A stretch of 64,000 nt of DNA from Psammoneis japonica (GCA_008632985.1 QPGO01000235.1:1-64000); one strand, 5' to 3'. Positions 1-64,000 are shown, numbered from the stretch's first letter. The notes: generated by a model not told the origin, from the letters alone. A program made the numbers and translations.

Positions 1-1220
1 TTTCGAGCACAGTGCACTTTGCAGCTGACAACCACTGGTGCAGACCTGATGAGGCACTTCACATTTTTGTTGAAGTTGCCAAATGGAGTTCAATTTGCTG
101 GCACCACACATGCGGCAGCCAGCCATGTTGAAAAAAAGAGCAAAAAAATCTTGCAACAGTGTTGAGCACTCTTCTTCCACACTTTTGTGCCTTGTGCAAA
201 AAGAGAAAGTTGTTCATGAGGTCAAAAGAAAGATCACTTGAAAAAATGATCAAATGAGGCAAACTTTTCCCACACATGGCTTGTGTTTGCCACTTGCTTT
301 GAGGAACTCCACAGCACACTTTTTGAGGTTTTCTGAGACATCTTGTCAGCAGCAGCTTCAAGACATGCATGGTGAAAAGACCCCCCAATCATTTGCCACA
401 GTGCTGCTGTCTGTCCTCTTGTCACAAAGCCTTGTTTGCTTGCTGTGCTTTGCCCGAGATGGAGTTTGAGCTGTCTTCTAATTCCAACATTGATGGTCAT
501 TGAGAGTGTGTGGCTCACAACAACTTTGCTGAGGGAGAGCAAGTGAGTGAGGTGCAGCAAGCAGTGGCAACATCCCCTCAGCTGAGTGTGCATGAGCTGT
601 CCACATCATGTGTGCTTGCAAAATGGGCAAGCAGAGCATGCAATGAAAATGAGTGCAAGCCAGCTTTCTTTGACACCGGTGAATGTTGACCATGCAGTGC
701 AACTTTGTGCTCTAATGATGCAGGTTTGGATGTGAACATTGGCCAGCACATTGAGCTGCTTGTGCAGGTTTTCACTGCCAGGCACTGAGAAGCCCCTCAA
801 CAACCAAGTGCAGGACTTTTTTCCTGGCCAGAGGTGGGAAGTTCATGATCCCCTCCTGTGCTGTGTTTTTCACCAACCTTGTGTCCCTTCTTGTGGCCTC
901 ATTTTTTTGCAGAGCATGAGTTGCTGTCCACAGTGAAGCACAGGCCTTGACCCACCTTTGCTGCCATGACTTGAGTGGCCACATGTGTTTGCGGTCTTTT
1001 TGTGGCATTGATGTTGCGACGTCACTCGGACAATTTGAAGTCATGTCGCCAAGCCACATTCTGGGGGGCACACTGTTCTTTGTGACTCATCTGGTGCAGG
1101 CAGTTCTGCTTCTTCATGCTTTGTTGAATGAGGTCCTCGCATGACGACGACAGCTGGGGACAAGGCGCTGCATGCACTTGGGATTCTTTTCTCTCTCGCA
1201 CCAGTGGTGCTCCAGTTCCA
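1..1220. other. TpA-depleted (hypermutated) block
   Basis: By eye only 2 TA dinucleotides in about 1.2 kb (479 and 713, both in CTAA). CpG is also scarce. TA reappears from about 1223. Confidence 0.85.
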
Positions 1221-1585
1221 TCTACACCCTTGCCATTTATTGTCGCTTTTACGTTGAGGATGGCGATGCAATTGCTGAAAGGCTCAAAGAGAGCGAACAT
1301 TCGAGTCAAAGCAGTTTGAATGTCGATGAGGTGGACTCGAGTGAAGGGAGGAGCACGAGCGAGGACAGGGAAGAAAACGTCTTGTGCGCGGACAAAGAGG
1401 AAAATGAATCATTGTCTCGTCAACGGAGCCACGGAAGGAATCGACGTAAGAGAACTGGGCGGAGCTCGTTGTTCACTACAGAGTCCATGAGAAACGTGCG
1501 TTCGAGTGTTACATCCATTCGCTCAAGCTTGAACCAGTCCGTGCTGGCCATGACAGAAGGGATGAAAGATGCTCTGGATCCATAA
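947..1585 (+). pseudogene. 3' part of a probable membrane-protein gene whose 5' part lies in the hypermutated block
   Basis: ORFs 947-1144 and 1172-1585 are in the same frame, separated by one TGA. Hydrophobic segments (LGGTLFFVTHLVQAVLLLHALL, HLGFFSL, IYTLAIY) precede an acidic/Ser-rich tail. Tyr appears only after about 1223. Confidence 0.35.
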
Positions 1586-1739
1586 TGTCATTCTGAAATT
1601 GTTTCTTGACTATTTTTTAACTCAGAATCAGGTGATCGGGATTTCCCATCCTCGTTCGCTGGCCGGCTCAGCTACCGTAGTCCTGTTGCATTTCTATGGT
1701 TGAGTATTTCACGTTCGCATCATGAGTGTACATTTGTGT

Positions 1740-4250: not shown

Positions 4251-4269
4251 TAAGCAGGGACATAACTGG

Positions 4270-6620
4270 CGACACTGAAGACTTCAGCCTGCCATCACCG
4301 TGCTTCGGACATTTTTGACAGGCACTCGGCCGGTGACAGTCGGCTTGAGTCGTCACTCTCGCTAGTTGTTTGCAGGAATGACTTGTGTTGGTTCGTCGTT
4401 TTCGCATCACATGATGTTTGTTGCGTGTGAGATTGGTTGTCTTCTCGGGGCGGTCGTCTTTGTCGCCTTTCGCGTCACCGACCACACCATCATTTTGTGT
4501 CGTTTGCTCGGACTGCAAATCCGATTGGGTCTGTGCCTCTTGTGGCTTGTGGCACATTTCCTGCGGAACCCATCAGTTGTCGGACTGACATTGTTGTTCG
4601 CAGCGCTGTGCATTTGCAACACAGACAAAAAAGCAAACCCACGAAACGACACCGCGATCGAAGAGGCGCCATCACCGTTGACAATGGCATCTTCCAGCGG
4701 TCCCACAACAAGAGTGCATCACCATCCATGCGACCAGCCAGCACGACGACTGCTCTGGCGGCATGCAGACAGTGGTCTGTTGCTCAGTCAGTGCGAGAGC
4801 CATTGAGTGTGCTGTGCATTCACAGATGTGCTCAGGTCTTTCATCTGTGATGTGGGCTCAGGTGCTGTGTGAACAAGTCCATGCTGATGGCAAGGGGCGG
4901 GGTGCAAGGGTGCCGTGCTCAGGGCCCGGCACAAAGCCGCTCCTCTGGGCACCTCCTTTCCATGCTGGAAACAAGTGTGCCATTCATGAGGGCTCATTTC
5001 TTCAAGCTTCAGAGTCAACCACAGCAGATGTGTCCCCCATCTTCATGTTCTTGTGGAGAACCTCATCTTGGCTGTGGGTCGATGCGGGGCACATGTCTGC
5101 ACACCCACGAAAGAAGTCACGATCTTCCAACACAATTTCTCTCCCAACAGAGCCAGCAACAAATGGTGCCTGATTGGAACAACAACAGGGTCCTTTGGTG
5201 CTCACACTCATCTTGCTGCACAGCAACTCTCTGCTGGCTCGAAGCTTCAGAGCGGCGCCCTCGACTGCTGCAGCAATGTGGGTCCAAGACTCTGCAGAAA
5301 TTGCTTGGGTGCCCCTGACTGCTGCCTTGTTTGGTGAGCGCAGCTGCCAAAAAAGCCACCAAAAGCCCAGCAGCACAGGGTTCCTTGTTGGTGGAGAGCC
5401 GCGGGTGGAGATTTGCTCGCTTGCGTCACAAATGTGGCAAATGAAGTAATTTCAGATGCACACAACATTTCGTTTGCGCGATTTTGTTCTGGAACGTGCA
5501 TTCTCACTGAAAATCTGGAGGCACCCTTTTTGCAATTTAGAAAGTTCAGTGTCGACTTTTAACACCGGGTTTTTTGAAAGCTTCATCCATGAACAGAGAG
5601 GAGCTGAATCTCAACCTCTGACAATGAAGTTTGTTGTGAACCACCATCACAAACAGAGAAACAATGCCACACATTGGGGGCAAATCTCTGCCGGTGGAGA
5701 TTTGCTCCCAATGAGCAAATGCACGTGGCACACTTTGCGCAGATTGCACACGATGTGACATTTTTTCACTGTGTTCATTGTGTTGTTGCAAAAGTGCATG
5801 ACACATCACACATCCTCAAGTGGAGCAAATCTCCACCGTGGAGATTTGCTCCCCTGGTGGTTGAAAGGTTGAGAGCCAGGCTGGCAGACTTGGCAAGAAG
5901 CTTTGCGCAATTCTTGCCAACACAAAGAAGAAAATCTTCTGGTGCTTTGATGGCCAAACATCCTCTCCCACTGCCTTTGACAATGTGCTTGAAGCCGCCT
6001 GTCTTTTTTCCGGAACATTGGTCACAAAGCGGCCCTTGCTCAGCTCGGCACACAGCAAACCTCTTTTTGTTGATCACAGTGTGTGTTGGTGGGTGCATCT
6101 GCAGCCAGCGTGCCATTGACTTCAACAGGCAGTTCGACACTCAGAGAAGAAAGCATGTTTGCCAGAGGAAAGGGCTCCTCTGTCTTTTTGTTTGTTCTTG
6201 TGTGGAGGTTTGCCACACGCTGGCTCTGCTCATTTGCAAAACAACGCTGTGAGCTCTGATCAGTCAAGAGCAAAGCAGGTGAGATTTCAAAGCCACTGCA
6301 AACTGTCTTTGTCTTGTTTCGCACTTTGAATTTTCATGGTGTGTTGGGGTGCAGGGAAAGCGGGGAAGTCATGCTTGCTTGGCTGAGAAGGTTGTCCAAG
6401 CAGCAGGATGGCTTGCAAGCATTGGGGCCCCAGGGAGCTGCGTGGTGTGATGTTCTTTTTCGTTTTTTTGTGCAGTGCCTGGAAACACATTGCAGAGCTT
6501 TTGATCAATCATTCAGCGCAGTTCGCGGTTCGTGTTCGCGGATCGTCGCGTCGCATGCTTTTTCTTTTGAGCACCAATGACTCTGTGCGGTCAGTTTGTC
6601 TGTCACTTGGCACCCGCGGG
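4270..6620. other. TpA-depleted block of degenerate repeat-derived sequence
   Basis: Very few TA, essentially those within the MITE (GTAA, TTAG, TTAA). All overlapping ORFs are His/Cys-rich and Tyr-free. Confidence 0.8.
5400..5868 (+). mobile_element. piggyBac-type MITE, 5'-truncated copy
   Basis: Alignable over about 470 bp with 38886-39353. Ends CTGGTGGTTGAAAGG followed by TTGA (5869-5872), interpreted as a mutated TTAA. Confidence 0.8.
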
Positions 6621-7114
6621 CATACTGTAGTGTTGTTTCGAATGTGGAATGAATTCCCGATCTCTACTCTCTAGTAGCTCTGCTACCGTAGATAGAGAGA
6701 GAGAGAGCTGTTAGGCAACAGCAACGAATTTGGTCCCGAGTCTTTTCAGAGTTGTTTTCTCATCACAATGTGTTGGGAGCTGTAACGTCGTGGATGACTT
6801 TTTGCACTCGGGTGAGGAGTCACACCCTTTGCTCTGCAAACAACTTGCTAGAGGTCGAGAAGCATCAATGAGAGCTAGAGAGGGTACATTCATGCATTTG
6901 TTTAGGTCTTTCATGTAAGATATGCGTTCAGGTGTAAATAACTCCGTGACATCGACTACAGATAAGGAATGGAGGGCACATACCTGGATCCATAAACCAT
7001 TTCTATACTGTTTTCTCTCCGCGGTGAACCGGTGCCTTTGGCTCATCCAAGAGGGTAAAGCTTATAATCTGAGTTTCTGGGATACGTGATGGCCCCAAAG
7101 CCAAGAACTCTTTT

Positions 7115-7967: not shown

Positions 7968-8377
7968 GACGATGCAAGTCCGTTGCAATGCTGTAAGGTA
8001 GCTTCAAGACGTCCGAAACGAATGTTTCTCGGGTTGCTGTCATCGCCTCGCTCTCGCTCGCTCCTCTTGGAAATCTTCGATCGGATATCTGGAGGACTTC
8101 CTTTTCCTAGTGTTCTCTCTCTTTCACTAAACGTTTGTATTAACATCTTATAGGAAGACCTCGTTTCTGGAGCTATCACAGAACGCAAAACGACGATAGA
8201 AAAAGCAACATCAATCCTGATGACAGAACCAGCCTGAAACTCCTATTTGCTTCTGTGTTTCTTTTAGGGGATGTGTCAACGGAAGGAAACAGCGTGCACT
8301 GTGGCTTATTGCAGCTATAGTCATCGATTTTGTTCGCCGTTTTTAAAAAAGAAAACGTTGCACCGTAGGACATGAGG

Positions 8378-11300
8378 ATGACACCCACTGGTCACAGTCA
8401 AAGGCGATTGCCTTTGGAAGGACGATTCTTTGCTCGGTCTCATGAGCTCAGCCGAATACGTTCGTGTCTCGATTCCGAGCCTTCAGGGGTAAAAGTTGTG
8501 CTTGTTTCAGGCTGTAGCGGTGTCGGAAAATCTAGATTGCTTCGTGCCGCTCTAACTTCGAGTACCCCTCGATTGATTGGATGCGCAAAGTTTGACTCGC
8601 GGATTGCTCCGTTGGAAGCCATTCAAGACTGTGTTGTCGACATTGTTCGAAAGATCCAAGCGAATGAGGCCCTTTTGCATTTGATTCGTCAGCGACTTGG
8701 AGATAGCATGGAAGATGAGCACAAAGACATGTTGATGTCTGTGATTCCAGAAACGAGGGCTGTGCTTCAGTTCGAAACAGATGAAGAGGAAAAGACGAAT
8801 GAGGAGAGGTCGGTAGCCCATACCGGTACAATGAGCAATAGTAAAGAAAACATGCTGCAGCTTCAAATGGCCCTGAAGGCCTTCTTGTTTGCAGTGGCTG
8901 GATTTGAGAAGGTTGTCCTTTTACTTGACGATCTTCAGTGGTGTGGTCAAGATTCCTTTGATGTTATCTTGTCTGTGTTTACAGAGCCAAATGCCTCCAA
9001 TATGGTGCTTTGTGCGTCGTATCGGGATAACGAAATCAGGAGTGAGCTAATAATGTTTATGAACAAGCTAACAAACTCTCTACCATCACCGGCGATTTGC
9101 TCTGTGAGTCTGAAAGCCTTCGATGCAGCGTCCATCAATGACATGATGGCTTCCCTTCTAAATGCTGACTCTAACGAAGAAACGTCCAACCTTGCCGGGA
9201 TCATTCATCAACGCACCGACGGGAATATTTTTTTTAAGGCAGTTTCTTGAAGAGTTACAAAGAGAAGGGCTTCTCCGGTACAACTTCATTGCTTCTAAAT
9301 GGGAATATGACGTACAACAGATCCAAGACAAAACAGCTCTCTGCGAGAACATTGTTCAGATCGTCACTAAAAGAATCCATCGATTAGACCCGCCCATCCG
9401 GGATATCTTAAAGCTACTTGCCTGCTTTGGATGTCGGAGTAATGCTTCGACCTTGGAAATGTGTCAATCGGTCTTTTCTGAAATCTCGAATACGGGTGAG
9501 CTACTTCAAGTGGCATGTACCCAAGAGCATCTACTGGACGATCTTGGAAATGGATGGTATAAGTTCAGTCACGACAAAATTCTCGAATCTGTCAAGTCCA
9601 TGCTACCTACTGGAGAGGAGCTCAATAAGCTACACTGGGATATCGGGATGTTCCTATTTGGCGCTCTTGATGGTGCAACCACAGATCGCGACCGCCTTCG
9701 TTTCATGTGCGCGGACCAGATCAACTTGGGCGGAGCTCGTTTCGTCAAGGGAGCAAAGCATCGTGTTCAGCTTGCCAAGCTCAACTTGGACGCTGCCAAG
9801 TCGGCGTCGAGGCTATCGGCGTTCCATCCAGCTTGCAGATACTGCCAAGCTGGAATTGACATTCTTGGAGAGAACATGGCCGGTTCTTTGAACGTCGCGC
9901 TCGACTTGTATGTTCACTTTGCCGAAATGCTGTTTTGTTGTGGTGATATGACCCGAGCGAGAGAATATTGTGACAAGATCTTTGCATCTGGGACACTGGA
10001 GCACAAAGTCCGATGCTACGTGACCATGTTGCAAATTCTCTTGTCAGAGGCAAAGAATCATGATGTTGTCGACTTTGGGTTACGGGCTTTGAAAGCACTT
10101 GGCGAAACCGTACCCCCAAAGCCCAACAAACTTCAAGCCCTCTATAGCTACAAGATAATGGCCAAAATGCTGAACGATTCCACTCCTGAAGATATCCTCA
10201 GCTTGCCGATCATGAAAGACCCTGGAAAGGCCGCGCGTACTGAAATTTTGTTGGCTATGGTGATGCCTATCGTTCATCTCGCAATGACCAATTTGTATAC
10301 GGTAGTGGTTGAGCGGATGCTAAGTCTAACCTTTCAGTACGGGTTGACAACCGCAGCCCCTGAGGCCTTCGCCATAGCAGGAGCAGAAGTCATTGCACAC
10401 CGAAATGATCTTAAGCATGCATATCAGCTTGGGAAGCTGGCCGTTTCCTTGGCGGATCGACTGAAAGCAACGAGTGTCAAAGCAAAGGTATATATGTGGA
10501 CTAGCGCCTTCACGCAATGGTGGATGGAGCCGCTTGCTCACTGCCTTGAATCAGCACTGAAAGGCTATCATGCTGGACTTGCTGTTGGCGATCAGCATTA
10601 CGGCTTTCATTGTATTTCAGCGTATGCTCTAACGTACGGATACTCGGGAATTCCGTTGTTACCTCTTCTTGATGATCTTGATAAATATGGTCAGCAGATG
10701 ATTGATTATGGACAGTTCATGGTCTTGTTTTGCATCATTCCCATGTGGCAGTTTGTCTTGATCTTTGTGGGAAATCTGACTCGCCGCTTGATATGTCTCG
10801 AGGCTACGCTCTCGACAAGCAGAAGCTGGCGGGGAACGAAGAGAGGATTGGAGAACAAGCTTGTTGGTCATTTCTGATGCAGTTGTGCTTTTACTTTGAT
10901 GACATCGAGAAGGCTAGTGATCTCTCCCACCGGCTTCAACGTCTAGACATCGGATTTGCGAGAGCCGAAGTGTTTTTCCCTGCCAGAGTATTCTTTTTCT
11001 CCCTAATCGCGATTGAGCAGTTCCGTCGCACAGGAAAGCGAAAGTTCAAGTTGGAAGCGAAGATGCATGTGGAGCTGATAATGAAATGGATAAAGCTCGG
11101 TGCGATAAATTTGGTGCACAAAGGTATGATCCTTCAGGCTGAGATGGACTCGCTTACTTCAAAAGACCCTCATGTCGTTCGATCAAAGTACGATAAGGCA
11201 TTTTCATGCGCCACGAGGAGTGGCTTTTTGCAAGATGGAGCTCTCGCGTGTCAACTTGCGGCTTCTTTTTGCAAGAAGGTGTTACCAGACTGCATGAACC

Positions 11301-11515
11301 AGTATGTTGTAAAAGCGTGGGAGCAGTGGATGGAGTGGGATGCGATTGCAGTGGCAAAGCACCTAGAAAAAAAGTATGCTGGCATTCTTGGTAGCACCAA
11401 ATTGATCCGGTTGGGTGATCAAGGCTCGCTTCTTGGGAGAAATGGATTTCGGAGTCGTTCCCGTTTTTCTGAATCTGCTGCTAAGAAGCATGAGAAGTTG
11501 AACTATGGACCTTAA
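8378..11515 (+). CDS. STAND-like P-loop ATPase (AAA_16/COG3899-type) with helical C-terminal region, copy 1 (frameshifts near 9235 and 10761)
   Basis: Walker A GCSGVGKS, Walker B LLLDDLQW, TDGNIFF and YKFSHDKI. Colinear with the intact paralogue at 12044. Both shifts are short deletions in T or A runs. Confidence 0.85.
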
Positions 11516-12043
11516 GGCTGCTCCTTTTTGGTCGATGTTCCCGAGAGAGACAAACATCCAGTCATAAGGATCTTCTAGTGGTGGATGGCCGCCATCGAGA
11601 CCAAATGTCCAAAACCGCAAAAGAGACAGTCAGCATTTCTTGGTAACGTTGAACCTTTCAGCTTTCACGAGTAGGGAGTGAAGAGCTCTAACTCGGTCCT
11701 GTCCTTTTCCTAGAGTGTTCTCTCTCTTTCACTACTAGTTCTGTATTACCATCTCATAGGAAGACCTCCTTTCTGGAGCTACCTATTACAGCCAGAACAA
11801 CGCGCAACTATCTCGCACGCAACTCGCAACAATCCGCAGAGGTCTCGCAGAAGATCAGATCACCGCGACGACGGTCCTTTGCACCCACATCCTCTAGCTA
11901 GCGGTATTTGCTTCTGTGTTTACTTTTAGGGGATGAGTGAACAGAAGGCAACAGTGTGCACTGTGGCTTATTGCAGCTATGATCATCGATTTCGTTCGCC
12001 GTTTTTAAAAAAGAAAACTTCGCACCGAAAGACCTAATAAAGA

Positions 12044-15000
12044 ATGACACCCGCTGGTCACAGTCAAAGGCGATTGCCTCTGGAAGGACGATTCTTTGCC
12101 CGGTCTCATGAGCTCAGCCGAATACGTTCATGTCTCGAGTCCGAACCTTCAGGCGTAAAAATTGTGCTTGTTTCAGGCTGCAGTGGTGTCGGGAAGTCGA
12201 GATTGCTTCGTGCCGCTCTGACTTCGAGTACCCCTCGATTGATTGGATTCGCAAAATTTGACTCGCGGATTGCTCCGTTGGAAGCCATTCAAGACTGTGT
12301 CGTTGATATTGTTGGAAAGATTCAAGCAAATGAGAATCTTTTGCATTTGGTTCGTCAGCGACTTGGCGATAGCATGGAAGATGAGCAGAAAGACATGTTG
12401 ATGTCTGTCATGCCAGAAACGAGGGCTGTACTTCAGTTCGAAACGGATGACGAAGAAAAGAAGCAAGATGAGAGGTCAATGACGAAGACTATTAGCAGCA
12501 ATAAGCAAAACATGCTACAGCTTCAAATGGCCCTGAAGGCCTTCTTTTTCACGGTAGCTGAATTTGAGAAAGTTGTCCTTTTACTCGACGATCTTCAGTG
12601 GTGTGGTCAAGATTCCTTGGATATTATCTTGTCTGTGTTTACAGAGCCAAAGGCCACCAACATGGTGCTTTGTGGGTCGTATCGGGACAACGAGATCACG
12701 ACTGAACTAAAGACTTTTATGAACAGCATGTCTGACTCTCTAGCATCGCATGTGATATGCTCAGTGACGCTGAAGGCCTTCGATCCAGCAGCCGTCAATG
12801 ACATGCTGGCTTCGCTTTTGAGTGTTGACTTGAAAGGAGAAACGTTCGAGCTAGCGAATGTCATTCATCAGCGCACCGATGGGAATATCTTTTTTGTGAG
12901 GCAGTTTCTTGAAGAGTTACAACGAGAAGGGTTTCTTCGATACAACTTCATGACCTCTCAATGGGAATATGACGTGCAACAGATCCAAAACGAAACGGCA
13001 CTCTGCGAGAACATTGTTCAGATCGTCGCTCAAAGAATCCATCGACTAGACCCGCCCGTCCGGGATATCTTAAAGCTACTTGCCTGCTTTGGATATCGGA
13101 GTAATGAATCGACCTTGGAAATGTGTCAATCGATCTTTCCTGAAATCTCGAATGTGGGCGAGTTACTTCAAGTGGCATGTACCCAAGAGCATCTACTGGA
13201 CGATCTTGGAAATGGATGGTATAAGTTCAGTCACGACAAAATTCTCGAATCTGTCAAGTCCATGCTACCTACTGGAGAGGAGCTTGATAAGCTACACTGG
13301 GATATCGGGATGCTTCTTTTTGGCGCTCTTGATGGTGCAACCATAGATGGTGACCGCCTTCGTTTCATGTGTGCAGACCAGATCAACTTGGGCGGAGCTC
13401 GATTCGTTAAGGGAGAAAAGCATCGTCTTCAGCTTGCCAAGCTCAACTTGGACGCTGCCAAGTCGGCGTCGAGGCTATCGGCGTTCCGTCCAGCTTGTCG
13501 ATACTGCCGAGCTGGAATTGACATTCTTGGAGAGAATGTCGCCGGTTCTTTGCATGTTGCGCTGGACTTGTATGTTCACTTTGCTGAAATGCTGTTTTGT
13601 TGTGGTGATATGACCCGAGCAAGAGAATACTGCGACAAGATCTTCGCGTTTGGAACACTGGAGCACAAAGTCCGATGCTACGTGACCATGTTGCAAATTC
13701 TCTTGTCAGAGGCAAAGAATCGTGATGTTGTCGATTTGGGGTTACGAGCTTTGAAAGCACTTGGCGAAAATGTACCCAAAAAGCCCAACAAGCTTCAAGC
13801 TCTACATAGTTACAAGAGAACAACCAAAAGGCTGAACGATTCCACTATTCAAGATATTCTCCTCGTACCGGTTATGAAGGACTTCGTCAAAGCGGCTTGT
13901 ATTGAAATCATGCTTGCAATGGAGTTACCTATAGTTCATCTCGCAATGATCAATTTGCACACAGTGATTGTTGATCGAATGCTAAGTCTCACTTTCCGTC
14001 ATGGATTGACTACTGCAGCCCCTGAAGCCTTTGCAGTAGCAGGGGCGGACGTCATTGCACAGCGAGACGATCTCAAGAACGGATACCAGCTTGGGAAACT
14101 AGCTGTCTCCTTAGCGGACCGACTAAAAGCGACAAGTGTGAAGGCAAAAGTTCACATGTGGTTCAGTGCTTTCACTCAGTGGTGGGTGGAGCCGCTTGCC
14201 CAGAGTCTCGATTCTGCTTTGAAAGGTTACAATGCCGGACTGGCGGTCGGCGATCAACACTACGCGTTTCACTGCATCACTGCCTACACCACTGCCTACG
14301 TCTATTCGGGCATTCCGCTGTTACCTCTTCTTGATGATCTTGATAAATATGGCCAGCAGATGATTGACTACGGGCAATTTATGGTCTTGTTTTGCGTTAT
14401 TCCAATGTGGCAGTTTGCCTTGAATCTTTGTGGGAAATCTGACGCGCCGCTTGACATGACTCGAGGCTACGCCGTCGACAAACAGAAGCTGGCGGGAAAT
14501 GACGAAAAGATTGGAGAACAAGCTTGTTGGTCATTTCTGATGCAATTGTGCTTTTACTTTGATGACATCAAGAAGGCCAGTGATCTGTCCCAACGGCTTC
14601 AACGCCTTCAAATAGGAATTACACGGGCCGAAGTGTTTTATCCGACAAGAGTGTTCTTTTTTTGCCTTACTGCGATCGAGCAGTTTCGTCGTACAGGAAG
14701 GCGAAAGTTCAAGCTGGAAGCGAAGAAACATATGCGGCAGATTACGAAATGGATAAAGCTCGGTGCGATCAATTTAGTACACAAAGGAATAATTCTTCAA
14801 GCCGAGATAGACTCGCTAACTTCAAAAGACCCTGTTGCCGTTCGATCGAAATACGACAAAGCGATTTCATGTGCCACCCGGAGTGGCTTTTTGCAAGATG
14901 GAGCTCTCGCGTGTCAGCTCGCAGCATCGTTTTGCAGAAAGGTTCTGCCAGACTCTATGGAACAGTACGTATTCAATGCCCACGAAAACTGGATGGCCTG

Positions 15001-23546: not shown

Positions 23547-23577
<31 letters not shown>
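23547..23577. repeat. (CT)n microsatellite
   Basis: About 15 CT units. Confidence 0.9.
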
Positions 23578-46329: not shown

Positions 46330-46802
46330 GTGGAAGGCATGGGTGAGGAGGGGGCAGGGAGAGAGGAGGTGAATCGGAGGATGTGCATAGAAAGGTGAAG
46401 AACAACGTTGCAGCCAAGAGTTTGGGTGGCCCACTGGGATGGGGTGGCTGCACGGCAGGTGCTTCCAAAGCGATCGGCGGACAGGCGACGCCATGCGGAG
46501 TCAGCAGAGGGAAGGATTGCAGATGGAGACGACAAAGCGTAGAGGAAGGCGGAGCAGGAGGCATCGTGGAAGGTGTGGGTGAGGAGGGGGCAGGGAGAGA
46601 GGAGGTGAATCGGAGGATGTGCGTAGAAAGGTGAAGAACAACATTGCAGCCAAGAGTTTGGGTGGCCCACTGGGATGGGGTGGCTGTACGGCAGGTGCTT
46701 CCAAAGCGATCGGCGGACAGGCGACGCCATGCGGAGTCAGCAGAGGGAAGGATTGCAGACGGAGACGACAAAGCGTAGAGGAAGGCGGAGCAGGAGGCAT
46801 CG
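46330..46802. repeat. Two tandem 236-bp units
   Basis: Units start at about 46331 and 46567 and differ at only five sites. Confidence 0.92.
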
Positions 46803-46946
46803 GAGTGTACGCAGCTTTCTACAGGGTGTCTGTGCAAGTTGAAGTTAGACTGCGCTGGTGCCGAAATCAAAAAGCGTTCGATGGACAGACCATTTGACAG
46901 GTGCATCATTGATTTGATTGATTGGCTGCATCACACCTGTGAGACC

Positions 46947-47070
46947 AGCCGGACTGGACCCGGTCCAGTCCGGCTCCGGACCGGGCCGGTGACGTGGCAC
47001 ACAAGTAATTTTGTATAAAACAATCAGTTGTTTTACAAGATTTGTGTAAATAATTTCAGTTATTTTGCAA
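46947..47070. repeat. Inverted-repeat cluster upstream of the Crypton gene
   Basis: Perfect 14-bp arms AGCCGGACTGGACC-C-GGTCCAGTCCGGCT (46947-46975), then TAAAACAA-tcag-TTGTTTTA and AAATAA-tttcag-TTATTT. Confidence 0.75.
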
Positions 47071-47260
47071 GAACATGTTCGTGACGTCAAGGTGACATTC
47101 CACGTAGTGCCGTCCACAGGGATTCCATCTCAAGATTCCCTTTCAGATGGGTTCGCCGGTTCGCCGGCGTTCACTGCAAGCACACACAAGAACAACCACA
47201 ACAACAACAGCACCGTCATCATCAGCCGATTCTGCATTGCATCACAACGACAAGTCCAAA

Positions 47261-50100
47261 ATGCCGAGAGTCCCTGTTGTCAATGCCACAGCCACATTTG
47301 GGATGGCTGCAATGGGGGCTTCCAATCAGCTCACCTCTGACACTTTTGCTCAGCAGTCAAGATTGGTGCGAGACATGCACGATGACATGGGTGACAAAGA
47401 TGACAACACGAAGAAAGCAATGAAGGTGTAAGTTTTAATTAAACCCTTGTCTCACCTGCATTTGATGATCCGTTTTAATTAAAAATGTGCCTGTGACCCT
47501 CACCTCTGTTTTAATTAAATTTTTTTGGCAGACATGAGAACCAGTTCTGTGCAATGTGTGATTGCAAGTGTGCCGCATTGGGAGACACCAGGTGCTTGAT
47601 TGATGAGCAAAAAGCCTTCATTTGCCTGTTCCGTTGTGCCTTTCACCCGCAAAAGAAGAGGGGCAGGGCAAAGAAGGGAGAGACCAGGCCAATCTTTGAT
47701 TCTGAGCTCTTTGAAACGGCGACAGCTGGCAATCCCTTGACTGCAGCAGACGTTCCAAATGAGACTGAATTGCTTGACCAGACAGAAGCTGGTGTTGGTG
47801 AACCCAACAAGCTCTGCCAGTGGGATGTCATCAACCAGGCTTGTGCATCCCTTCGATGACTGTTTGTTTGTCAGCTTGAAACACATGGCAGAGATCCTGC
47901 TGTGTTGCTTCGTCATGAAAATTCCAGCCGCATCAAATGTCTCAAGCATCTTGTCAAGTCCAGGAAGGCACAAGAGAAATGGAAACGGGTGGATGAGAAG
48001 GTGAGTTTTAATTGAAATGTGTGGTCTCAGTTTCATTCAAAACAGCTGACCTCTGCTGAGTTGTCCACCGTCAGGTTTCTGGTGACGTGTCGCCCCACCT
48101 GGCCCATGAGCGTTTCCCAGAGTTGGAGGAGGCTTGCTGGGAACATTCTTCTGGGACATTGCTCAATGGAACAGTTGCTTTGCACAACCGTTTCTTCATG
48201 CTGTACACCAAGCAAGCCATTTCCCGTGGGGAGTCTCCCCTCAAGGCTGACCTGAGCGATCTTTGCAGTTTCAGTTGTCAGTCAAGGAAGGAGGAACAGG
48301 CCTGCCTGATGCTCATCATGCAGATGTTCACTGGCAAAACCAATGGTGAAAGCACACTGTTTGGCCGTGTCATGCGACACAGAGATGTGAGAATGGACTC
48401 CATTGGTGGATTGGGTCTTTGTCTGCTCGGTGCGACCATCCAACCATGTCTGACTTTATTTGTCATGCCAACCATTTTAATTGAACAATCTGTTGCTTGC
48501 CAACCGTTTTAATCAAACAATCTGTTGCTTCAATCATTTTGAATGCAGGACGCTTCGAGATCAGCAGAGAATGGGAGAAGATTGACCTCAAGAGGAAGGA
48601 AACATGGTGGAATGTCAAGCTCCTTGTGGACGTGAAGAAGGCTGGCACATCCTCTGGAGACAGTGCTGAGTCACCCAACATGCAGCGCATGTCTCCTTCA
48701 TCTTACACTGCTTGGTTTGATCGTTTGAAGGAACGGCTTGACCTGTTCATCAACTGCAGTTTGCACTTTGGATGCATTGGAGGTGCAATCGAGTTAGAAT
48801 TAGAGGAGCTGGAGTCTTGTCTCATCAAAGCTCTTGGAAATTGGGGCCCAAGTGTGTTTGATGCTCGCCACTCTACAAAGCTGCCCTTGAAGGTGAGTTG
48901 ATGCACTTGTGGTGTGGCGGGTTCTGATTTTAATTAAAGCTGACATTTTGTTTCAATTAAATGATGTGAGGCAATGAGGGTTGCAGCTGGCTTTGCAAAG
49001 GAGCCTGGGACCTGCTTTGTTGGACGTGCCCTCTGCCAGCCCCCAGATGAACTGCAGAAGCAGATCTTTCCTTGGCTTGAAGGCATGGCAGAAGGAGTGT
49101 CCTGCAGGGAGCACCCCACATCACATGCCTTTGTGGAACTCTTGAGACAGTTGCGTGTTGTCATCCTCCAAGATGTGGCGGCTTTGATGCTGCTGGGCCG
49201 CACCCACGCCCTGTTCAAGCTTCCTGTTTTCACGTCAGCTAGATTTTTGTCATTCAAGGAAGAAATGAAGGTTTGCTTGGATGGCCCCCCCCCCCTTGCC
49301 CAGATGCTGGAGAAATCCGTGGGGTGTCTGAGCAGATTCAAAACTTGCACCAGGACAACCGACGCAGCCACCAGGAGCTGTTGTCTGCTGTCAATGGGTC
49401 TGTTGACTGCAACAGAAACATGATGAACAATTTTGCCTTTGCCATCAGAAACTCCCTGCGTGCAGCTGGAAATGCATTCAACAACTTGAGCCTGGAGCGG
49501 TCTCCTCCACCGACTGGTCAGCCAACACGCCAGCCAGCAATTGGTGAGTGCTGCATGTCATCTTGCTGTTTTAATTGGGGGTGTTTTAATTGAACATTTT
49601 TCCAACCAAATTGTGCATTTAATTGAAACCATTTGCAAGCCACCGGCACGGTGCCGGCAGCAGAGACACAGTCTCCCAGCACACAGTCTCCCAGTCTCAG
49701 TCCCGGCGTGAGCAGCTTTCGACCCCCCAAGTCAAAGCACACAGATCTTGCCAAGATCTGTGACTGCTTTGAGGGAAATGCTCCTCCTTTCACTGCCGGC
49801 AATGGAGTCAGGCATTTGGAGGCCAAAGGGACATTGTGGCGTTCGGCGTGGGAACCCAAAGACAAAAAGACACTCCGTCGCTGGAAGCAGCCAAAAAAAA
49901 TTGTGGACGAAGTGCTTGGCAAGAACTCCACACACCCCAAAGTTCTTGTCATTGCCAAGTTGAATTCATTTTGTGTTGCAGATTGCAACAATGCATTGAC
50001 AACTGCATTGAAGAAGTTCCCTGAACAGCATTGGCACTTTGCCCTTCCAGCTGGCAGCAATGAAAATCAAGGGGAAGTTGCCAATGTGCAGCTGCAACAA
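47261..50100 (+). mobile_element. Crypton (tyrosine recombinase, NDC10-II-like) gene with about 5 introns, hypermutated
   Basis: GKTNGE..RHRDV, WWNVKLL, HFG(C)IGGA, LGNW, DAR(H)STKLP, MRVAAGF, PPDELQKQIFPWLE and LRVVILQD match Crypton/NDC10 domain II motifs. Confidence 0.85.
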
Positions 50101-50330
50101 AGCAAGTGCACCGGACTGGTCCGGACTGTGTGGTGGGGGGTGACAAAATGGCTGACAAACAATGTAAAAACAAACCATTGGTTCGGCAGTTCAGTGCGGC
50201 TGACTCGGAAAGTGGGGCATTTTTGCTTGAGCAATTGCATGACGCAATGGTGAAGATGACGTCACATGAGAAAAAAATGATGTCCTGGCGACGTCATCTT
50301 CAATGTCTCATCTACAAGTGATGTCAAGTG

Positions 50331-50420
50331 TGTCACATCGCATGACATCACATCACATGACATGATGTGACACAACATCATTCAATGCAACATGATGTGA
50401 CATGACATGAGATGACACAG
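50331..50420. repeat. Decayed pentamer microsatellite, inferred ancestor (TATAA/TATTA)n
   Basis: In-register pentamers catga, tgtga, cacaa, tgcaa, catca and tgtca. Confidence 0.8.
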
Positions 50421-51519
50421 CAGATGACGACATTGCAAACACACCTTTCTTCTTGTGCCTTTTGGCTTTTCCTTTCACTTGGACATTGAGAGCCTCGGGC
50501 AAAACTCGCCAGACATGACAAACAAGGTCGCAATGAAGTTGTTCCCAACTGTTGAAGAGCGCTCCATGCTGTGAAGGAAAAGGTCACAGGAAAGAAGAAG
50601 CATCACGCACACCATGAAAAAGAAAGGATCTGGGATGGCTTTGGAGCTTTGCCGTGTGCGTGACGTTGCACATGTTGAGATGGACAGGACAGCCGTGCGT
50701 GACGTTGCATTTGTTGAGACAGGACAAACCGAGCTTTGGTTCAGCACTGGTTCAGCAAAAATCAATTGCCCTTTGGATGCTGGTTCAGCAAAAAATGTCT
50801 TGGTTCAGCACTTTGTCACTTGTGGTTTTTGAATTGTTGCAATTTTATTCTTTTGTTGTTGAGAGACGCTGTGCTGGACGTAAAACCGCTTGGACTGCCA
50901 CGACTGTATCTCCAGCACAAATTGTACGTGGGTAACAAACGGCATGTCGGTAGAAGTAGAAAGCTGAGAATCTGCTCTTTCAAACGGTGCATCTACTGTT
51001 GTCTCTGGTAGATGTTTAGAGTGAACTAGAACCTTTCAAAGTTGAAGTGATGCACATTTTGCGTAGGTGTTCATATGAAATGACGTGTAAATATATTTAT
51101 ATATGATGTTGAAGATTCAATAAACGGGTTGCATTTCGTGCGTTCAGAGACATGCCAGTAGACTACAGTATAGTTCCTACGGGCGAAAGAGACGAACAAG
51201 AAAATGCTTATTCGAAATCAAATACCTGGATTTTTCCGTCGATAGTTGCACCTATTTGTACTAAAAACAATAAGGAAATGAACTATCGGCGGACCCTTTC
51301 CAAAAAATCGGCAGAATGGGTCAATTTTGAGTTTTCAAAAATCCTGTGTGTCAAAAAATCGACTTTCTGATCGTTTTTCGCAAAGGGTCCGCCGACAGAT
51401 CGAAAGAAAATGATCGATTTTGTTGGTAAAGTGTGCTCAAATTTCTAATTTGACCAATTTTGGGTTTCGAACAAGTGGTGGCAGGTGAAACAGTTTTACG
51501 CGCAGCCCAGCGTACACCA

Positions 51520-54232
51520 TGACTGCCGGGGGTTGCAGGAAAAAACGAAATTTTCATTTTTCCTTGTTTTTGCTAAGTTTTTCCCCTCATTTTCGAACAC
51601 CGCGGTCTTTCGAAGCTTCAGCTGCAATGGGAATCATTCGAAAATGTCGCGTGAGTCACAGTTGGTGTTTTGCACAAGGAAAAACACAAAATCGTGTGGA
51701 AATGTGCACAACGTCATACGAGAGAGTGATTGGAGCTAACAACTTTTCGGGAACTAAATTGAAATGCCATCTGATCGACGTCAGATGGCATTTCAATTGA
51801 TTTCCCGAGAAGTTGACATTCACATGCGGGCTGATGGACAGGGAAGCCCGGGAAAGTGCGAAGCAACCAAAGCGCACAACAGCACAAATGAGTGGACATG
51901 TTTTGTTGGTCATTTTGCTTCAAAAGGAGCTCGGAAAAAGTTTGTCATGTCGTCAAATGACAGAACTGTCCTGAATCCTTCGAAATTTTTAATTGAGGAT
52001 CATTTTGCAAGAGACTTCGAAGTTGCTTCGAAGTCACTTCGAAGAAACTTCGAAGAAACTTCGAAGTGTCTTTTGATGATTTCTGTGCAAAACACAATGT
52101 GGTCATGAACAAATCTGTGGATGCTTCGAAGTTTCTTCGAAGTGTCTTGTGATGACTTCTGTGCAAAATGTGTTGTGGTCGTTGACACATTTGCAGATGC
52201 TTCGAAGAAACTTCGAAGTTTCTTCGAAGGCGAACTGTGACGTAGACATTGGAAAACATCTGTCCCTGAAAGCCTTCATTTCCAACTGTCACAAACGGAT
52301 TTTCGCTGCGTTTCGAAAATGAGCACGGCTCAGCACTGAGCCGAGTCAGCACCCACAAGTGTTGCTTTGAAAGTCGCTGTTGCAATGCCAGCCAAAGGCA
52401 AAGGACTTGAGAAAGGGTCCGATCACTGCAACCTCGTCCAGGAGCAGCACATCGGCGAAGTCGCCATGTGACATTCGATCCCACACCACCGCTCAAGCAT
52501 CGGGAGGTGCAGCATGGTTGGGATCGTGGCACAAGAAATGGCCGGTGGTGGGCCGGGCGGTGGGCGCGGTGATTGAGCGATGTGATGACGTGCGCATGAC
52601 GTTGCGTCATTTGTTGACCATGCTTCAAAGTGACCTTCGAAGAAACTTCGAAGAAACTTCGAAGCATCTTCAATGTTTGATCAAATGACGTCATCTTTGT
52701 TTGACACAAATTCTTCGAAGTGTCTTTGAAGCTTCCACGACTGAATGGAAGTGTTGCGAGCTCCCAAATGAAGTAAATCGTGTTGCGTCACAATGGGAAT
52801 GTGGAATCTTTCTGCATCTTTGCAGTTTCCCGGGATTCCCAGACTGACAACAATTGTTTTTGGTGCTCTTCTACACAATTTCTACGTGATGGCTCTCAGG
52901 ACCGAATGATTCCTGTTGCTCTCGATTTCGCAGAAGTTCTAATTTTTTATTTTTCATTTGAGAAAATGCAACAAATGTCATTGTGAATGGAAAATGGACG
53001 TTTTTCACTAAAGTCCATCATCGCGGTTCTCGCACGGTGCTTTCGCACGATTCTTCGCGCAGCAACGGGTGGCTTCGACCGGGTTCGCTTTGGAAGGCTG
53101 ATGATGAGTTGATGAGAACTCCAATTTGAATCATTGGCAACCCTCTCACCCCTCTGCTTCTTGCGGGATGGTCTGTTTCAAATTCAAATGCCGTCAAATG
53201 ACTCCAACTGCCAAAACCAACAAAGGCCTCTTGGCTGGGGGGGACTGTTTCGACGCAGTGGATTTCAAGATTCCCTTGCAGATCGCACTAAAAACGTTCC
53301 AAGATCATTCCAAAAGCGTTCCGAGAACGTTCTCAAATGCACCAATTCGCGCTGAGAGCCAACTTTGGAGCCTGACAATCAGCCATTGGGACAGATGATG
53401 CACCATCATGACCGCGCCATTGTTCAAACTGTCCCAGCATGACACAGCAATGTAAAATTTAAATGGATTTGATTGGCACATTGCTGAGAGGCACACCTGT
53501 CAAAACCGGTTTTTATTTTCTCCCAAAAAAAGTGCGGTTCTTAGAAGCCTCAACACTTTTCAATTGCAGCAGCTGCAGTTAAACTGTCACAATGTGTTGC
53601 AACTGCTGGGCTGGCTTTACACTGAACATGCTCTACAACAATCACCAACAGCTCCAACATTGAAAAACCATTCGACGAAATGGGCATTTTGTCATTCCCG
53701 CATTTTGACCGTTCTCGGAACGTTCCAAAAGTGTTCCCGAATCGCACCCAAACCGCACCCGAAGGGAATCTTTGAAAAGGCCCATCCACGAAAAACAATT
53801 TTTGACTTCACTCTGAACAGATGAGAACCCCAACAGGTCCGCAGAAACTGAATCCACCTGCTGCGACAAACACTTACTTCTGCCCACCGCCCGCGGTCGC
53901 TGTGGCACGCAGCCAGCATCACTTGGTGAGAATGCAAAGCATCAAGCACACGATGACCACAGAAGCATGCACTCACCATGTCAATGCACCCATCCAAAGC
54001 CACAGTACGTTAAGCCCAGACAGTCATCCAGTGGCTAACATAGCAGGGTCGGAACGGATTTCGGAACAGCAGTGCTGTCGGTTCATTCGCATTCGCATCG
54101 TGCTTCGCTCCGCAAGACGAAGAACAAATAATGGCGCACCTGCCGCGTGACCGCGTGGTGTTCGAAAAAGCGGGAAAAAGCAAGGAAAAATGAAAATTTC
54201 GATTTTTCTTGCATCTCCCCGAGGAACTGCTG
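51520..54232. mobile_element. Non-autonomous element with imperfect ~85-bp terminal inverted repeats and internal CTTCGAAGAAA arrays
   Basis: 51527-51607 (CGAAATTTTCATTTTTCCTTG..TTTTCGAACACCGCGGTC) is inverted at 54149-54225. The interior is TpA-poor but retains CpG. Confidence 0.7.
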
Positions 54233-61525: not shown

Positions 61526-61945
61526 TGCGCGGTCACACGTCCCTAAGTAATCTTGATGGTGCGAACTCCGCCGTTAAAGTATATTTAAGGATATACGTGT
61601 TATAGATGTTTTGTCGCCGTCTGTTATCCCCCCTCCATCACGTTTCGCACCCGTCTGTCTTCCCCCCTCCATCACGTTTCGTCTTCAAGGTATGTATTAT
61701 ATATGTACATGGATATTTATAACAGCAAGGTTCTTTCCGTCAGAAGCCCAACGTAGACCTACGTAATACTCAGTACAAAAAATAACGGTGTTCGTACCAC
61801 GCATGGCAAAAGGCTCGCACGTAGATTTGTACTGGAGCTTGTACATCCTGCCTGATAGACTTATAAATCCTTGTCTTGGCCCGAGCGCGCTAGAGGAGGC
61901 ATAACTCGCACGCACGTACAAACAACAAGCTAAAAAAATCGCACA

Positions 61946-64000
61946 ATGGCAGGCACAAAACGCAGAAGCACCGGCGGAAAGAAAAACACCTCTCCACGCA
62001 AAGGAGACAAAAAGAAAAAGGGTAAAGGACAAACAAATGAAACAACTGAAAGATCTCACAATGAGGAAATGAACAACGAAATCAACGGGTGGAATGCCGC
62101 AAAAAGCAACAAGAACTCTCGCACAAATTCCACGCAAAATTCACGCACCAAGGAAGACAACAACAAGGAGGAAAAACTCACACCTGATGACGAAAAACCC
62201 TTTACACGAAGCAGAAAAAACAAAAAGGAGGAGAACTCAAAAGCAATCGCTCCGGCGAAAATTGCAATCACGGAAGAAGATCACATGCATGAAGAATCCT
62301 CCGATGAAGACATCTTTCAACAACTCACAAGCAAGAATCACTCTACAGAATCCGATGAAGAAAACAAATGAGAAATGAATGAACAGGAGTCGCAGCAAAC
62401 CGACACACTGCAAGATGAAGAAATCGAGGAAGAAGCGAATGACAGGGAGTCGCAGCGAATCGACACACCACAAGAAACTGAAGCCACCGACCAAACTGAA
62501 GGAATTCCTTGGTGTCAGTTACGTCACAATGCATTTCTGACCATTCCACCATCCAAAAAGCCTCTGAAAGCAGTGGCCTCCATCCTGAGAGAATCCTTCG
62601 CAACAATGCAAGAGATGCTTGGACAAGACGTTCGGATCGGCACATGGGACCCTGATCTAGAGGATGCTTTTGGTGAACCAACCTCTCCAGAAGACATTCT
62701 GGAAGGATTGGCAAAGGAAAGAGAAATTCTAAGTGCTTTCCTGGGGGTGGACCTCAGCTTGGTTTTGCCGTGTTTTTGAACAAAATTCCCCGGGATTGCC
62801 ACCTTTTACCCTGTTTTTCTACGGAAAGGGTGAATTCCCGGGGAATCGACACAAATTGCCCTTCGTTGTGCATGCACCAAATGCACGAATAAAAAATTGT
62901 GCATTGGCAATTCCCCGTTCTTCCCCTCTTGTACATTTCTACGTGTTCTGCGTGCCGGCATGCACAGAACCACACATCAGAATTGAAAATCAACAATCGC
63001 AACAAAAATGGGCAACACGCCATGGAGCGGCTCGCATCCCATTTATGACGGCTTTTGTCAAACAATGATGACACCAGTCAATCTAGTGAGTGACATTGCG
63101 ATTGACAGCATAAAATGTGAAATGAACAGATTCTTGATAGATTGTGTTTGGAAAAAAAAAGGTGTGTTGATGGATCGTTGCACTCATTCTTTTGTCGTGC
63201 GGTCACAAGTGCAAGCCACACGGCATCCACAGTAAAGTCCAAAGCAAAAGTAGAACTGTCTGTGGCAAATAAAAATGTGGCGGATTGAATGGCCTTGCTT
63301 GTTTTTCCAGTCGACACATCTTGTGTTCAGAATGAAGCGGATCGTTTAGAATCACTGTTGTCGTGCAGCTACAAATGCAAACCATGAGGCATCTAAAGCA
63401 AAGGCTCAGGCAAAAGTGGAACCTCACAAGGCTAATAAAAAATGTGGCAGATTGAGTGTTCATGCTCATTCTTTCCTTTGAACTGTCTCATTTGCAGAAC
63501 ACAGTGCATCGCGCATTCCTTCTTGTGTCGCGTGGTCACAAATGCAAACCACAAGGGCTCTAGAGCAAAGGACAAGGCAAAAATAGAACCTCACACAAGC
63601 AACATTGACACGGCTGATCCAATGGTAAAGTTTCTTCTTTCCTCACTCTGCCACAAGGGGCCGCTTTGTGTCGATGTGTCGATGCAATCATTGTCATCGT
63701 CGCTCGGTCATGGTGATAAAAGCACACCCGCCTAACTGTAATTACCACACATCACCGCATTCCATTCGTTTTTGTTCCCCTCCCCTGAGCCCTTTCAGGC
63801 ATTCCTTCCCGCAAAATTACCCTCATTTCCCGGGATTCCCCCAAAAGGGCAAGGCAACTTCCCCTCACCCTGGCCATTTTGGGGAATCCCCAAATGGGTG
63901 AAACCAAACCAAGGGGTGGACCATCTCAACCCAAGAGTCAACGCCGAACACACAACATGTTGCCAACTTTGTTTCGTCCAGGTGTCAGAAGATTGCAGTC
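61946..64000 (+). pseudogene. Hypermutated TE-like ORF (possibly non-LTR retrotransposon ORF1), interrupted by an insertion and running off the window
   Basis: Low-complexity charged N-terminus, in-frame TGA at 62369, then LRHNAFLTIPPSKKP..IGTWDP. The frame resumes after the insertion (GVD|HLNPRVNAEH). Confidence 0.5.
62753..63913. mobile_element. Non-autonomous TIR element with target-site duplication
   Basis: TSD GGGTGGAC at 62745-62752 and 63914-63921 (a 6- or 10-bp reading is also possible). TIR CTCAGCTTGGTTT versus CTTGGTTTGGTTT. Removing the element restores the host reading frame. Confidence 0.85.

Follow-up and report, generated by a model that had tools for sequence, protein, structure and literature searches.

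The closest described counterpart of the pattern reported here is the TpA to TpG/CpA hypermutation of integrated viral DNA in the chlorarachniophyte Bigelowiella natans (Mettrop et al., bioRxiv 10.64898/2026.01.13.699255). In mutation-accumulation lines of this organism the mutation rate of two integrated viral regions exceeds that of the remaining genome about 1000-fold, and 230 of the 231 mutations in these regions are A to G or T to C changes, which according to the authors fall on TpA. The de novo rate in culture is about 1e-7 to 1e-6 per site per generation. The main text of the preprint also describes 124 genomic clusters that are depleted in TpA and enriched in CpA plus TpG, an enrichment of transposon domains (DDE endonuclease, reverse transcriptase) among TpA-poor coding sequences, and a single-copy nucleocytoplasmic large DNA virus (NCLDV) target with a Rho(TpA) of 0.45 in its hypermutable region. 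A DNA adenine deaminase of the ADAT2/ADAT3 type is proposed by the authors but is unproven there. The present analysis concerns a 64-kb window, by which we mean the whole stretch of 64,000 nucleotides that was analysed, from the diatom Psammoneis japonica (GCA_008632985.1 QPGO01000235.1:1-64000), in which blocks of mobile-element DNA nearly lack TA dinucleotides. We consider it very probable that mobile-element insertions in the nuclear DNA of this diatom underwent a DNA-level, TpA-specific A:T to G:C hypermutation.

Fungal repeat-induced point mutation (RIP), known from ascomycetes, likewise disables mobile elements through transition hypermutation of a specific dinucleotide, and leaves sharp borders and a marked dinucleotide signature. 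In the accounts consulted, it changes C:G to T:A, mainly CpA to TpA, by which TA is created and the GC content is lowered. Polymerase eta leaves a WA to WG signature, including A to G at TA. ADAR and APOBEC enzymes hypermutate selfish elements by single-strand deamination of RNA or cDNA intermediates, giving strand-biased tracts. ADAR favours a U before the edited A, as discussed by Mettrop et al. Among diatoms, cytosine methylation is reported for about 6% of the Phaeodactylum tricornutum genome (PMC6604790), and the mutation-accumulation paper on this species, in the text available, gives a GC to AT bias and leaves transposable elements unmentioned. Diatoms are not mentioned in the main text of the B. 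natans preprint, and full-text literature searches, whose coverage leaves out most subscription journals, found no report of TpA hypermutation in a diatom.

The locus in P. japonica shares with the B. natans system the conversion of TpA, and of no other dinucleotide, to TpG or CpA depending on the strand, on both strands, the restriction to foreign or mobile DNA beside a normal genome, and the long-term trace of TA-depleted clusters enriched in CA and TG. The hosts belong to separate SAR (Stramenopiles, Alveolata, Rhizaria) lineages, B. natans to the Rhizaria and the diatom to the Stramenopiles. Depletion is near saturation in the diatom, with an observed/expected ratio (O/E) for TA of 0.02-0.14 in the main blocks as against the Rho(TpA) of the NCLDV region in the preprint. 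The targets are DNA transposons, dispersed repeats and satellites, whereas in B. natans, as presented there, they are mainly viral DNA. CpG decay is present in the diatom blocks, while the preprint's main text never mentions CpG. A dependence on the bases flanking TpA, described below, is also absent from that main text, in which the words 'flanking', 'trinucleotide' and 'context' do not occur, although its Table S2 might hold contexts. The first-pass annotation of this sequence, which had pointed out the TA-poor blocks, was aware of no described equivalent; the 2026 preprint makes that statement outdated. The diatom case adds to the kind of process first reported there DNA transposons mutated to saturation, a flank rule and a CpG decay that is separable.

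The window contains 1595 TA dinucleotides (O/E 0.37), with an excess of CA (1.37) and TG (1.38). The shortage is concentrated in the eight blocks that the first-pass annotation had delimited, where 168 TA are found in 27,047 bp (6.2 per kb) versus 1427 TA (38.6 per kb) in the remaining window; TA O/E ranges from 0.02 to 0.22 per block and is about 0.53 outside. All 36 TA-free gaps of at least 200 bp lie inside these blocks, the longest being 1220 bp; when 1595 TA were placed at random 1000 times, no gap exceeded 605 bp, and gaps of at least 200 bp numbered 10.3 on average. The depletion is real and far beyond chance. A two-state hidden Markov model (HMM), used for calling strong blocks, returned six of them covering 22.8 kb (1-1446, 4264-6622, 22041-29119, 34860-41787, 47517-50845 and 51756-53452). 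In all, about 23-27 kb of the window is depleted. The segments 45490-46200 and 61940-64000 are only partially depleted, with TA O/E of 0.10 and 0.22. The block edges are step-like: at 11 edges the outer 300 bp hold 134 TA, or 12.2 per edge versus 11.6 expected from the background, and the inner 300 bp hold 7 in total, a count that is partly circular since edges were placed at TA positions. Terminal repeats coincide with the block edges in a 7.1-kb element and in an element with terminal inverted repeats (TIR element). The depletion is limited to mobile-element blocks, and neighbouring genes and gene duplicates have a normal composition. The spot counts of the first-pass annotation (2 TA in 1-1200, 8 TA in 9001-9120) are exact, and the discrete TA-poor blocks and sharp edges that it described are borne out, the latter with the circularity just mentioned.

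A mass balance over the six strong blocks minus a satellite (20.75 kb), set against the expectation from background O/E values, indicates what replaced the missing dinucleotides. The blocks lost 621 TA and 623 CG, together 1244, and gained 606 TG and 584 CA, together 1190. In the pooled blocks and outside them, respectively, O/E is 0.07 and 0.53 for TA, 0.45 and 0.96 for CG, 1.67 and 1.20 for CA, and 1.66 and 1.22 for TG. The remaining dinucleotides shift by at most 0.12 O/E, AA, AT and TT being almost constant. The GC content is 0.486 in the blocks versus 0.476 outside; it stays constant because the TA and CG conversions cancel. The polarity is opposite to that of RIP, as TA is destroyed at constant GC. 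GC-biased gene conversion was rejected because TA alone is lost, AA is not depleted and GC is constant. An error signature of polymerase eta, one of the mechanisms put forward in the first-pass annotation, would share the A to G change at TA but also predicts loss of AA; this explanation fails, as AA is kept (O/E 1.27 in blocks versus 1.20 outside).

The direction of change can be read from a 380-bp sequence of normal composition at 19422-19801, which is a paralog of the segment 23178-23550 in the 7.1-kb element. At 13 positions the normal copy of this pair has TA, and at 12 of these the block copy reads TG (4) or CA (8); all 13 CG of the normal copy are likewise replaced by TG (9) or CA (4); for neither dinucleotide is a reverse change seen, so that CA/TG to TA, the change expected from RIP, is absent. 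The only TA that was kept lies in the context TCTAAA. The normal copy is the sole TA-normal relative of block sequence in the window, is intergenic and lies 2.2 kb from the block. It is either a host fragment captured by the 7.1-kb element or a short fragment of the element that escaped mutation. A control is provided by a tandem duplicate of a STAND NTPase gene (3244 aligned bp, 85% identity), in which the changes between TA and TG/CA are balanced, 27 in one direction versus 25 in the other, and 68 TA are shared.

Comparison of sequences that are themselves depleted points the same way. Two block copies of a dispersed repeat (5399-5870 and 38885-39355; 82% identity) have 13 TG/CA double differences in 470 bp, versus 7 in the 3244 bp of the STAND control, which indicates that ancestral TA or CG decayed independently in each copy. 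A contig of run X2 placed on 39442-39677, beside this repeat, differs from the window at 18 positions; among the 14 differences listed, in 39473-39636, four are TA and four are CG where the window has CA or TG, and four make up two TG/CA doubles. At the protein level, an open reading frame (ORF) of 466 residues from a decayed Mutator-like element (MULE) transposase has 1 Tyr, 27 His and 21 Cys. Where its four nearest homologs have Tyr, at 37 positions of which several are one query residue compared with more than one homolog, the window protein has no Tyr and 15 Cys or His. Full HMMER searching gave 76 relatives of this ORF, as compared to none with a word-indexed protein search. Among the 73 relatives of at least 140 residues, whose median Tyr share is 2.5%, five (P0032, P0033, P0042, P0051 and P0052) fall below 0.6% Tyr and are enriched in Cys and His; one, for instance, has no Tyr in 479 residues and another has 7 in 1443. 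The minimum among 120 relatives of a DTW protein from the window is 0.6%. A metagenome scan gave no locus for the Tyr-free homolog P0032. The same process may have left traces elsewhere in the host genome or in further public assemblies.

The products are about evenly divided between the strands. TG and CA counts are similar in each block (168/143, 249/237, 862/769, 369/319 and 156/137), with 457 TG versus 455 CA in the MULE block, and their order is random, runs tests giving z values of -1.6 to +1.5, as in the background. Conversion proceeds site by site, with an independent choice of TG or CA at each site. Processive deamination of a single strand was rejected, since the runs tests show no strand-coordinated tracts. 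The similar TG and CA numbers, their random order and the involvement of DNA transposons place the process at the DNA level, on both strands, and exclude editing of a single RNA strand. ADAR- and APOBEC-type systems are similar in being deaminase-type hypermutation against selfish elements, but they differ in exactly these respects. The elements could still have been TA-free on arrival, by such editing, before integration, of extrachromosomal or RNA intermediates, by horizontal acquisition from a donor poor in TA, or by selection against TA, and edges at element termini would also follow from a change before insertion. We regard this as very improbable. The 13 TG/CA differences at the same sites of the dispersed repeat point to independent change in each copy, cut-and-paste DNA transposons without an RNA or free replicative stage are affected, and a single edited RNA strand would yield TG or CA but not both. 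Moreover, blocks vary in progress, some being saturated and partial ones having lost the TA in RTAY contexts first. The MULE transposase, without Tyr codons and broken in frame, cannot be the active form of this element.

The TA that survive are not a random sample of contexts. Survival relative to the background is 0.02 for RTAY (4 versus 426), 0.09 for mixed contexts (36 versus 781) and 0.43 for YTAR (59 versus 274). In palindromic contexts it is 0.73 for TTAA, 0.14 for CTAG, 0.05 for GTAC and 0.02 for ATAT, the difference between TTAA and ATAT being significant by Fisher's test (p = 2e-9). Square-root products of these palindromic survivals predict the non-palindromic contexts well, and such a multiplicative fit implies a half-site effect, exerted by the base 5' of T or, equivalently, by the base 3' of A. 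Sensitivity according to the base 5' of T decreases in the order A > G > C > T, with half-site counts in blocks and background of 10/802, 34/831, 48/638 and 106/691. The hexamers TTTAAT, TCTACA and TCTAAA are not depleted (14, 9 and 9 in blocks versus 19, 17 and 12 in a background of twice the size). In partly depleted blocks RTAY is lost first while other contexts are still present: in 45001-47000 RTAY occurs at 3 and 2 per kb versus about 10 per kb in the background, and in 61940-64000 it is down to 1 and 0 per kb, with mixed contexts (8 and 2) and YTAR (14 and 6) persisting. The rule is that RTAY is erased and TYTA/TARA is spared.

Loss of CpG accompanies that of TA in most of the blocks but varies in extent. 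Seven of the eight blocks of the first-pass annotation are poor in CpG (CG O/E 0.16-0.72), the exception being 51480-54230 with 0.96, and among the six strong blocks five have CG O/E of 0.16-0.60. TA loss is near complete in all strong blocks, while CpG loss ranges from none (0.97, TIR element) to severe (0.16, 7.1-kb element). The TIR element, poor in TA but with normal CpG, makes TA loss and CpG decay separable. We infer that the CpG loss reflects deamination of 5-methylcytosine in methylated elements, which would be slower than the TpA conversion and independent of it. Decay driven by 5-methylcytosine matches the loss of CpG and the gain of TpG and CpA seen here, but covers only half of the TG plus CA gain and, unlike the process acting in these blocks, cannot remove TA.

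A technical origin of the pattern was also considered. Both lost dinucleotides could bear modifications. Miscalling of modified bases (5-methylcytosine or a modified T in silenced DNA) in native long reads could, once strand-specific errors are merged into a consensus, produce the random pattern of TG and CA, and the library type of the runs is unrecorded. From run X1, a contig of 6,925 nt at depth 67.8 matches 23589-30476 without a single difference, covering about 5.5 kb of block and spanning its right edge. Word depth lies at about 63-79 in 10 of the 11 bins that cover 22001-29337, which equals that of the flanking genes (55-68), and at 153 in the remaining bin. A contig of 31-mers that runs unbroken at full depth rules out strand-specific miscalls, which would split paths and halve the depth. 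The block copy and its normal paralog also differ by indels and 26 transversions. We therefore consider a sequencing or assembly artefact extremely improbable. The first-pass annotation had named amplified reads showing TA at these positions as one outcome that would speak against it; strand-specific miscalling is dealt with by the contig and its depth, though X1 is not an independent replicate.

How the process selects its targets can be considered in view of the duplicated sequences in the window. The first-pass annotation described a repeat-targeted process, and a RIP-like trigger, with homology recognition between copies and another dinucleotide specificity as the sole difference, would be in agreement with the fact that the blocks are mobile elements, with at least one family at about 50 copies, and with base-sharp edges at element termini. 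RIP acts on duplicates, but the 3.3-kb tandem STAND duplicate, whose copies were of uncertain similarity when they arose, keeps its TA with a symmetric spectrum of changes, and a second duplicated gene region (32484-34414/42879-44934) also has normal TA and a symmetric spectrum. The depth of 22001-29337 is like that of flanking genes, although old copies would exceed the divergence tolerated by 31-mers. In B. natans the NCLDV target is single-copy, according to the preprint, and TG and CA alternate randomly in the diatom blocks, without strand-coordinated tracts. A duplication trigger is improbable on these grounds, and duplication is probably not what marks the targets. Since two gene duplicates are untouched and the B. 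natans target is single-copy, targeting would instead occur via a chromatin or small-RNA mark on the element. The core of the first-pass annotation, that A:T changes directionally to G:C at TpA of either strand, only within mobile-element blocks and with a polarity opposite to RIP, is upheld by the paralogs, the mass balance, the TG/CA symmetry and the loss of Tyr. Its repeat targeting is not, and the silenced state of the DNA and the defence role that it proposed are presumptive.

In view of the above, the most probable course of events is as follows. Mobile insertions (MULE, Crypton-like element, TIR transposon, 7-kb element with direct repeats, dispersed repeats and satellites) were hit by a process that changes each TA to TG or CA, halts at the element ends, and spares adjacent genes and gene duplicates. 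It would be the same kind of process as that observed in real time in the viral DNA of B. natans, here close to saturation. Another process, slower than the first and separable from it, converts CpG to TpG/CpA in most of the same blocks. For the first process we tentatively suggest, with slightly less than even confidence, a deaminase that turns the adenine of 5'-TA-3' into inosine wherever a mark identifies the DNA as mobile or foreign. Such a deaminase would act best with a pyrimidine after the A, which is equivalent to a purine before the T of the other strand, and worst at TYTA/TARA.

Alternatively, the thymine of TpA could be the modified base, for example through a TET/JBP-type dioxygenase that forms 5-hydroxymethyl- or 5-formyluracil, which is then copied as C or misrepaired. 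In the DNA of dinoflagellates, 5-hydroxymethyluracil is said to occur preferentially at TpA, and 5-formyluracil forms mispairs with G. The strand-symmetric signature fits a T to C change equally well, and the strongest flank effect is that of the base directly 5' of T, so that the rule can be read as a preference for a 5' purine. The only group that has measured the process proposes an ADAT2-type adenine deaminase, itself unproven. Thymine modification is a rather unlikely alternative to the adenine deaminase, but it is more credible than the other explanations considered here.

Several points weigh against the hypermutation reading as a whole or limit its reach. One 64-kb window was analysed and all runs come from one sample; the process may be neither genome-wide nor still active. 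There is one pair of normal and block sequence in the window (352 bp), and the direction of change rests on this pair, the contig differences and the protein comparisons. The flank rule takes a mainly genic background as proxy for the ancestral composition of the elements, although its effects are large. Run X1 is probably the assembly's own data, with unrecorded library type, and speaks for internal consistency rather than as an independent replicate. The TA shortage of the satellite at 39.7-41.8 kb may be due in part to its own composition. Adenine deamination and thymine modification are inseparable on sequence alone, as A to G on one strand is T to C on the other. Finally, the B. natans work, in the text available, saw no CpG component and had viral DNA as main target, and the two systems may not be the same.

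The features of the window are collected in Table 1. Unrelated mobile elements that inserted separately, together with satellites, make up the blocks, with the class established for three only. The first-pass annotation had attributed the blocks to transposable elements of unrelated classes; domains or terminal repeats bear this out for the MULE, the Crypton-like element and the TIR element, and the remaining blocks are unclassified. Of 110 listed ORFs, 13 that belong to the satellite or are the ankyrin gene were excluded; the other 97, block ORFs of at least 100 residues, were scanned against Pfam, and four had a match above cut-off (two Mutator, one NDC10_II, one Glug motif).

Table 1. Coordinates and properties of the TA-depleted blocks, reference sequences and genes in the 64-kb window
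Feature	Position	Strand	Remarks
TA-poor and CpG-poor block, truncated by the window start	1-1446	.	HMM; TA O/E 0.05, CG 0.37; TG 168, CA 143
TA-poor block	4264-6622	.	TA O/E 0.03, CG 0.60; holds dispersed-repeat copy 5399-5870
Tandem duplicate of STAND NTPase gene, control without hypermutation	8244-11493 and 11905-15168	+	Pfam AAA_16/nSTAND1
SYO1 gene	15469-17898	-	Pfam; normal composition
Normal-composition paralog of block segment 23178-23550, direction reference	19422-19801	+	352 aligned bp
Saturated 7.1-kb block, single element with terminal direct repeats	22041-29119	+	17 TA in 7079 bp (O/E 0.04), CG 0.16, TG+CA 1.85
DTW+GNAT fusion gene	30751-32232	-	Pfam; normal composition
TA-poor block with decayed MULE transposase gene	34860-39700	+	Pfam PF20700
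High-copy dispersed repeat, about 470 bp	38885-39355	+	palindromic GGAGATTTGCTC / GAGCAAATCTCC hairpin motifs; second copy 5399-5870
GC-rich tandem satellite, 184-187-bp unit	39701-41787	.	repeat families D1-D4; GC 0.60-0.62
Partly depleted segment	45490-46200	.	TA O/E 0.10, CG 0.72
TA-poor block with Crypton-like remnant	47105-50846	+	TA O/E 0.08, CG 0.41
TIR-bounded DNA transposon, about 2.7 kb	51525-54222	.	TA-poor, CpG normal
Partly depleted block, truncated by the window end	61940-64000	.	TA O/E 0.22; 166-bp tandem repeats, family D12
Ankyrin protein gene, 1350 aa			normal-composition part
COG2, C-terminal part			normal-composition part

In the MULE block the transposase is split across two ORFs, both matching Mutator PF20700 (34698-36095, E 8e-9; 36020-36589, E 3e-9), and inverted repeats were not found at the block ends. 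The domain NDC10_II (PF16787), which we take to be common to Crypton tyrosine-recombinase elements, is present in the ORF 48965-49420 (E 3.8e-13; 49.6 bits versus a cut-off of 26.3); terminal repeats were not found for this block, at 47-50.8 kb. The TIR element carries inverted repeats of 56 bp with 82% identity (51528-51583 and 54219-54164), and its HMM core, 51756-53452, has TA O/E of 0.07 and CG O/E of 0.97. The direct repeats of the 7.1-kb element (22059-22113 and 29040-29094) are 55 bp long and 78% identical. The Glug motif is the sole Pfam match above cut-off in the ORFs of this element, a sequence search of three of its ORFs against the PDB gave no match at E <= 0.1, and its class is unassigned. 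For block 1-1446 the ORFs matched no Pfam family and terminal repeats were not found.

The dispersed repeat reaches an X1 word depth of 3548 in the bin 38676-39342, compared to about 68 nearby, or about 50 times single-copy depth, and may be a non-autonomous element. The motif GGAGATTTGCTC occurs three times in the repeat (38885-39355, 5399-5870), two occurrences being paired with their own reverse complement to form perfect hairpins. A metagenome scan with a 15-base motif of the repeat gave 119 loci, of which only two match over more than the seed (21 and 24 bases), with none showing TA depletion like that of the blocks; these loci were rejected as chance matches because they barely exceed the seed. 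The satellite has 0, 1 and 0 TA per 500 bp, a strong strand skew and nested 33-bp sub-repeats. It is open in all six frames, and its ORFs of 250-620 residues make it a trap for gene callers. Inside the partly depleted segments a 236-bp tandem duplication of 97% identity (46330-46801) and three 166-bp tandem units (63193-63595) are found.

The genes in the normal-composition parts are ordinary and mostly without introns. The SYO1 protein has 21 matches in the protein collection, with a top identity of 42%. For the DTW+GNAT protein 201 relatives were obtained; among the matches listed, all seven that carry an organism name are from diatoms (Amphora, Entomoneis, Nitzschia, Thalassiosira, Seminavis, Skeletonema and Corethron; 42-49% identity), and the top match has 57% identity. 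These matches agree with a diatom origin and indicate that the proteome of the host is absent from the collection. Copy 1 of the STAND NTPase duplicate is broken into several ORFs and copy 2 is a single ORF of 1049 residues. The second duplicated gene region, 32484-34414/42879-44934 and also 18311-18826, has about 70% identity and normal composition, and matched no Pfam family. One of its copies is at high depth in run X2. An intron is indicated in the gene at 32675-33571, where an X2 contig (depth 1268) omits 149 bases at 32642-32790 with GT..AG ends. Contigs of X2, a run labelled 'DNA?', sit on genes at very uneven depth and the run resembles a cDNA data set; they are absent over most blocks, which was not taken as a sign of silencing. 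Scans of the whole window with Rfam and for tRNA gave no matches.

All Tyr codons and the stop codons TAA and TAG contain TA. Erasure of TA consequently ruins the coding capacity of an element yet leaves long, misleading open frames. TA-free blocks without TAA and TAG hold many open frames that lead to false gene calls, and proteins from such blocks, lacking Tyr, are missed by word-based homology searches, as was seen with the MULE ORF. The flank rule and the separable CpG decay go beyond the first-pass annotation and the main text of the preprint, and the flank rule is a concrete biochemical prediction for candidate enzymes. If the hypermutation reading is correct, the type of enzyme (adenine deaminase or thymine modifier), the mark by which it is aimed and the age of the system would become testable. 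It is possible, although we lean slightly against so broad a view, that an old, dedicated genome-defence pathway common to SAR lineages is at work, with a DNA-modifying enzyme that reads half-sites, is aimed by a mark and not by duplication, and provides a main route by which DNA transposons, unclassified elements and satellites are permanently disabled in diatoms. Should the hypermutation reading itself hold, a mutational defence of a polarity opposite to RIP would extend beyond a single chlorarachniophyte to the diatoms, a major and genetically tractable group, where it would reach completion on transposons.

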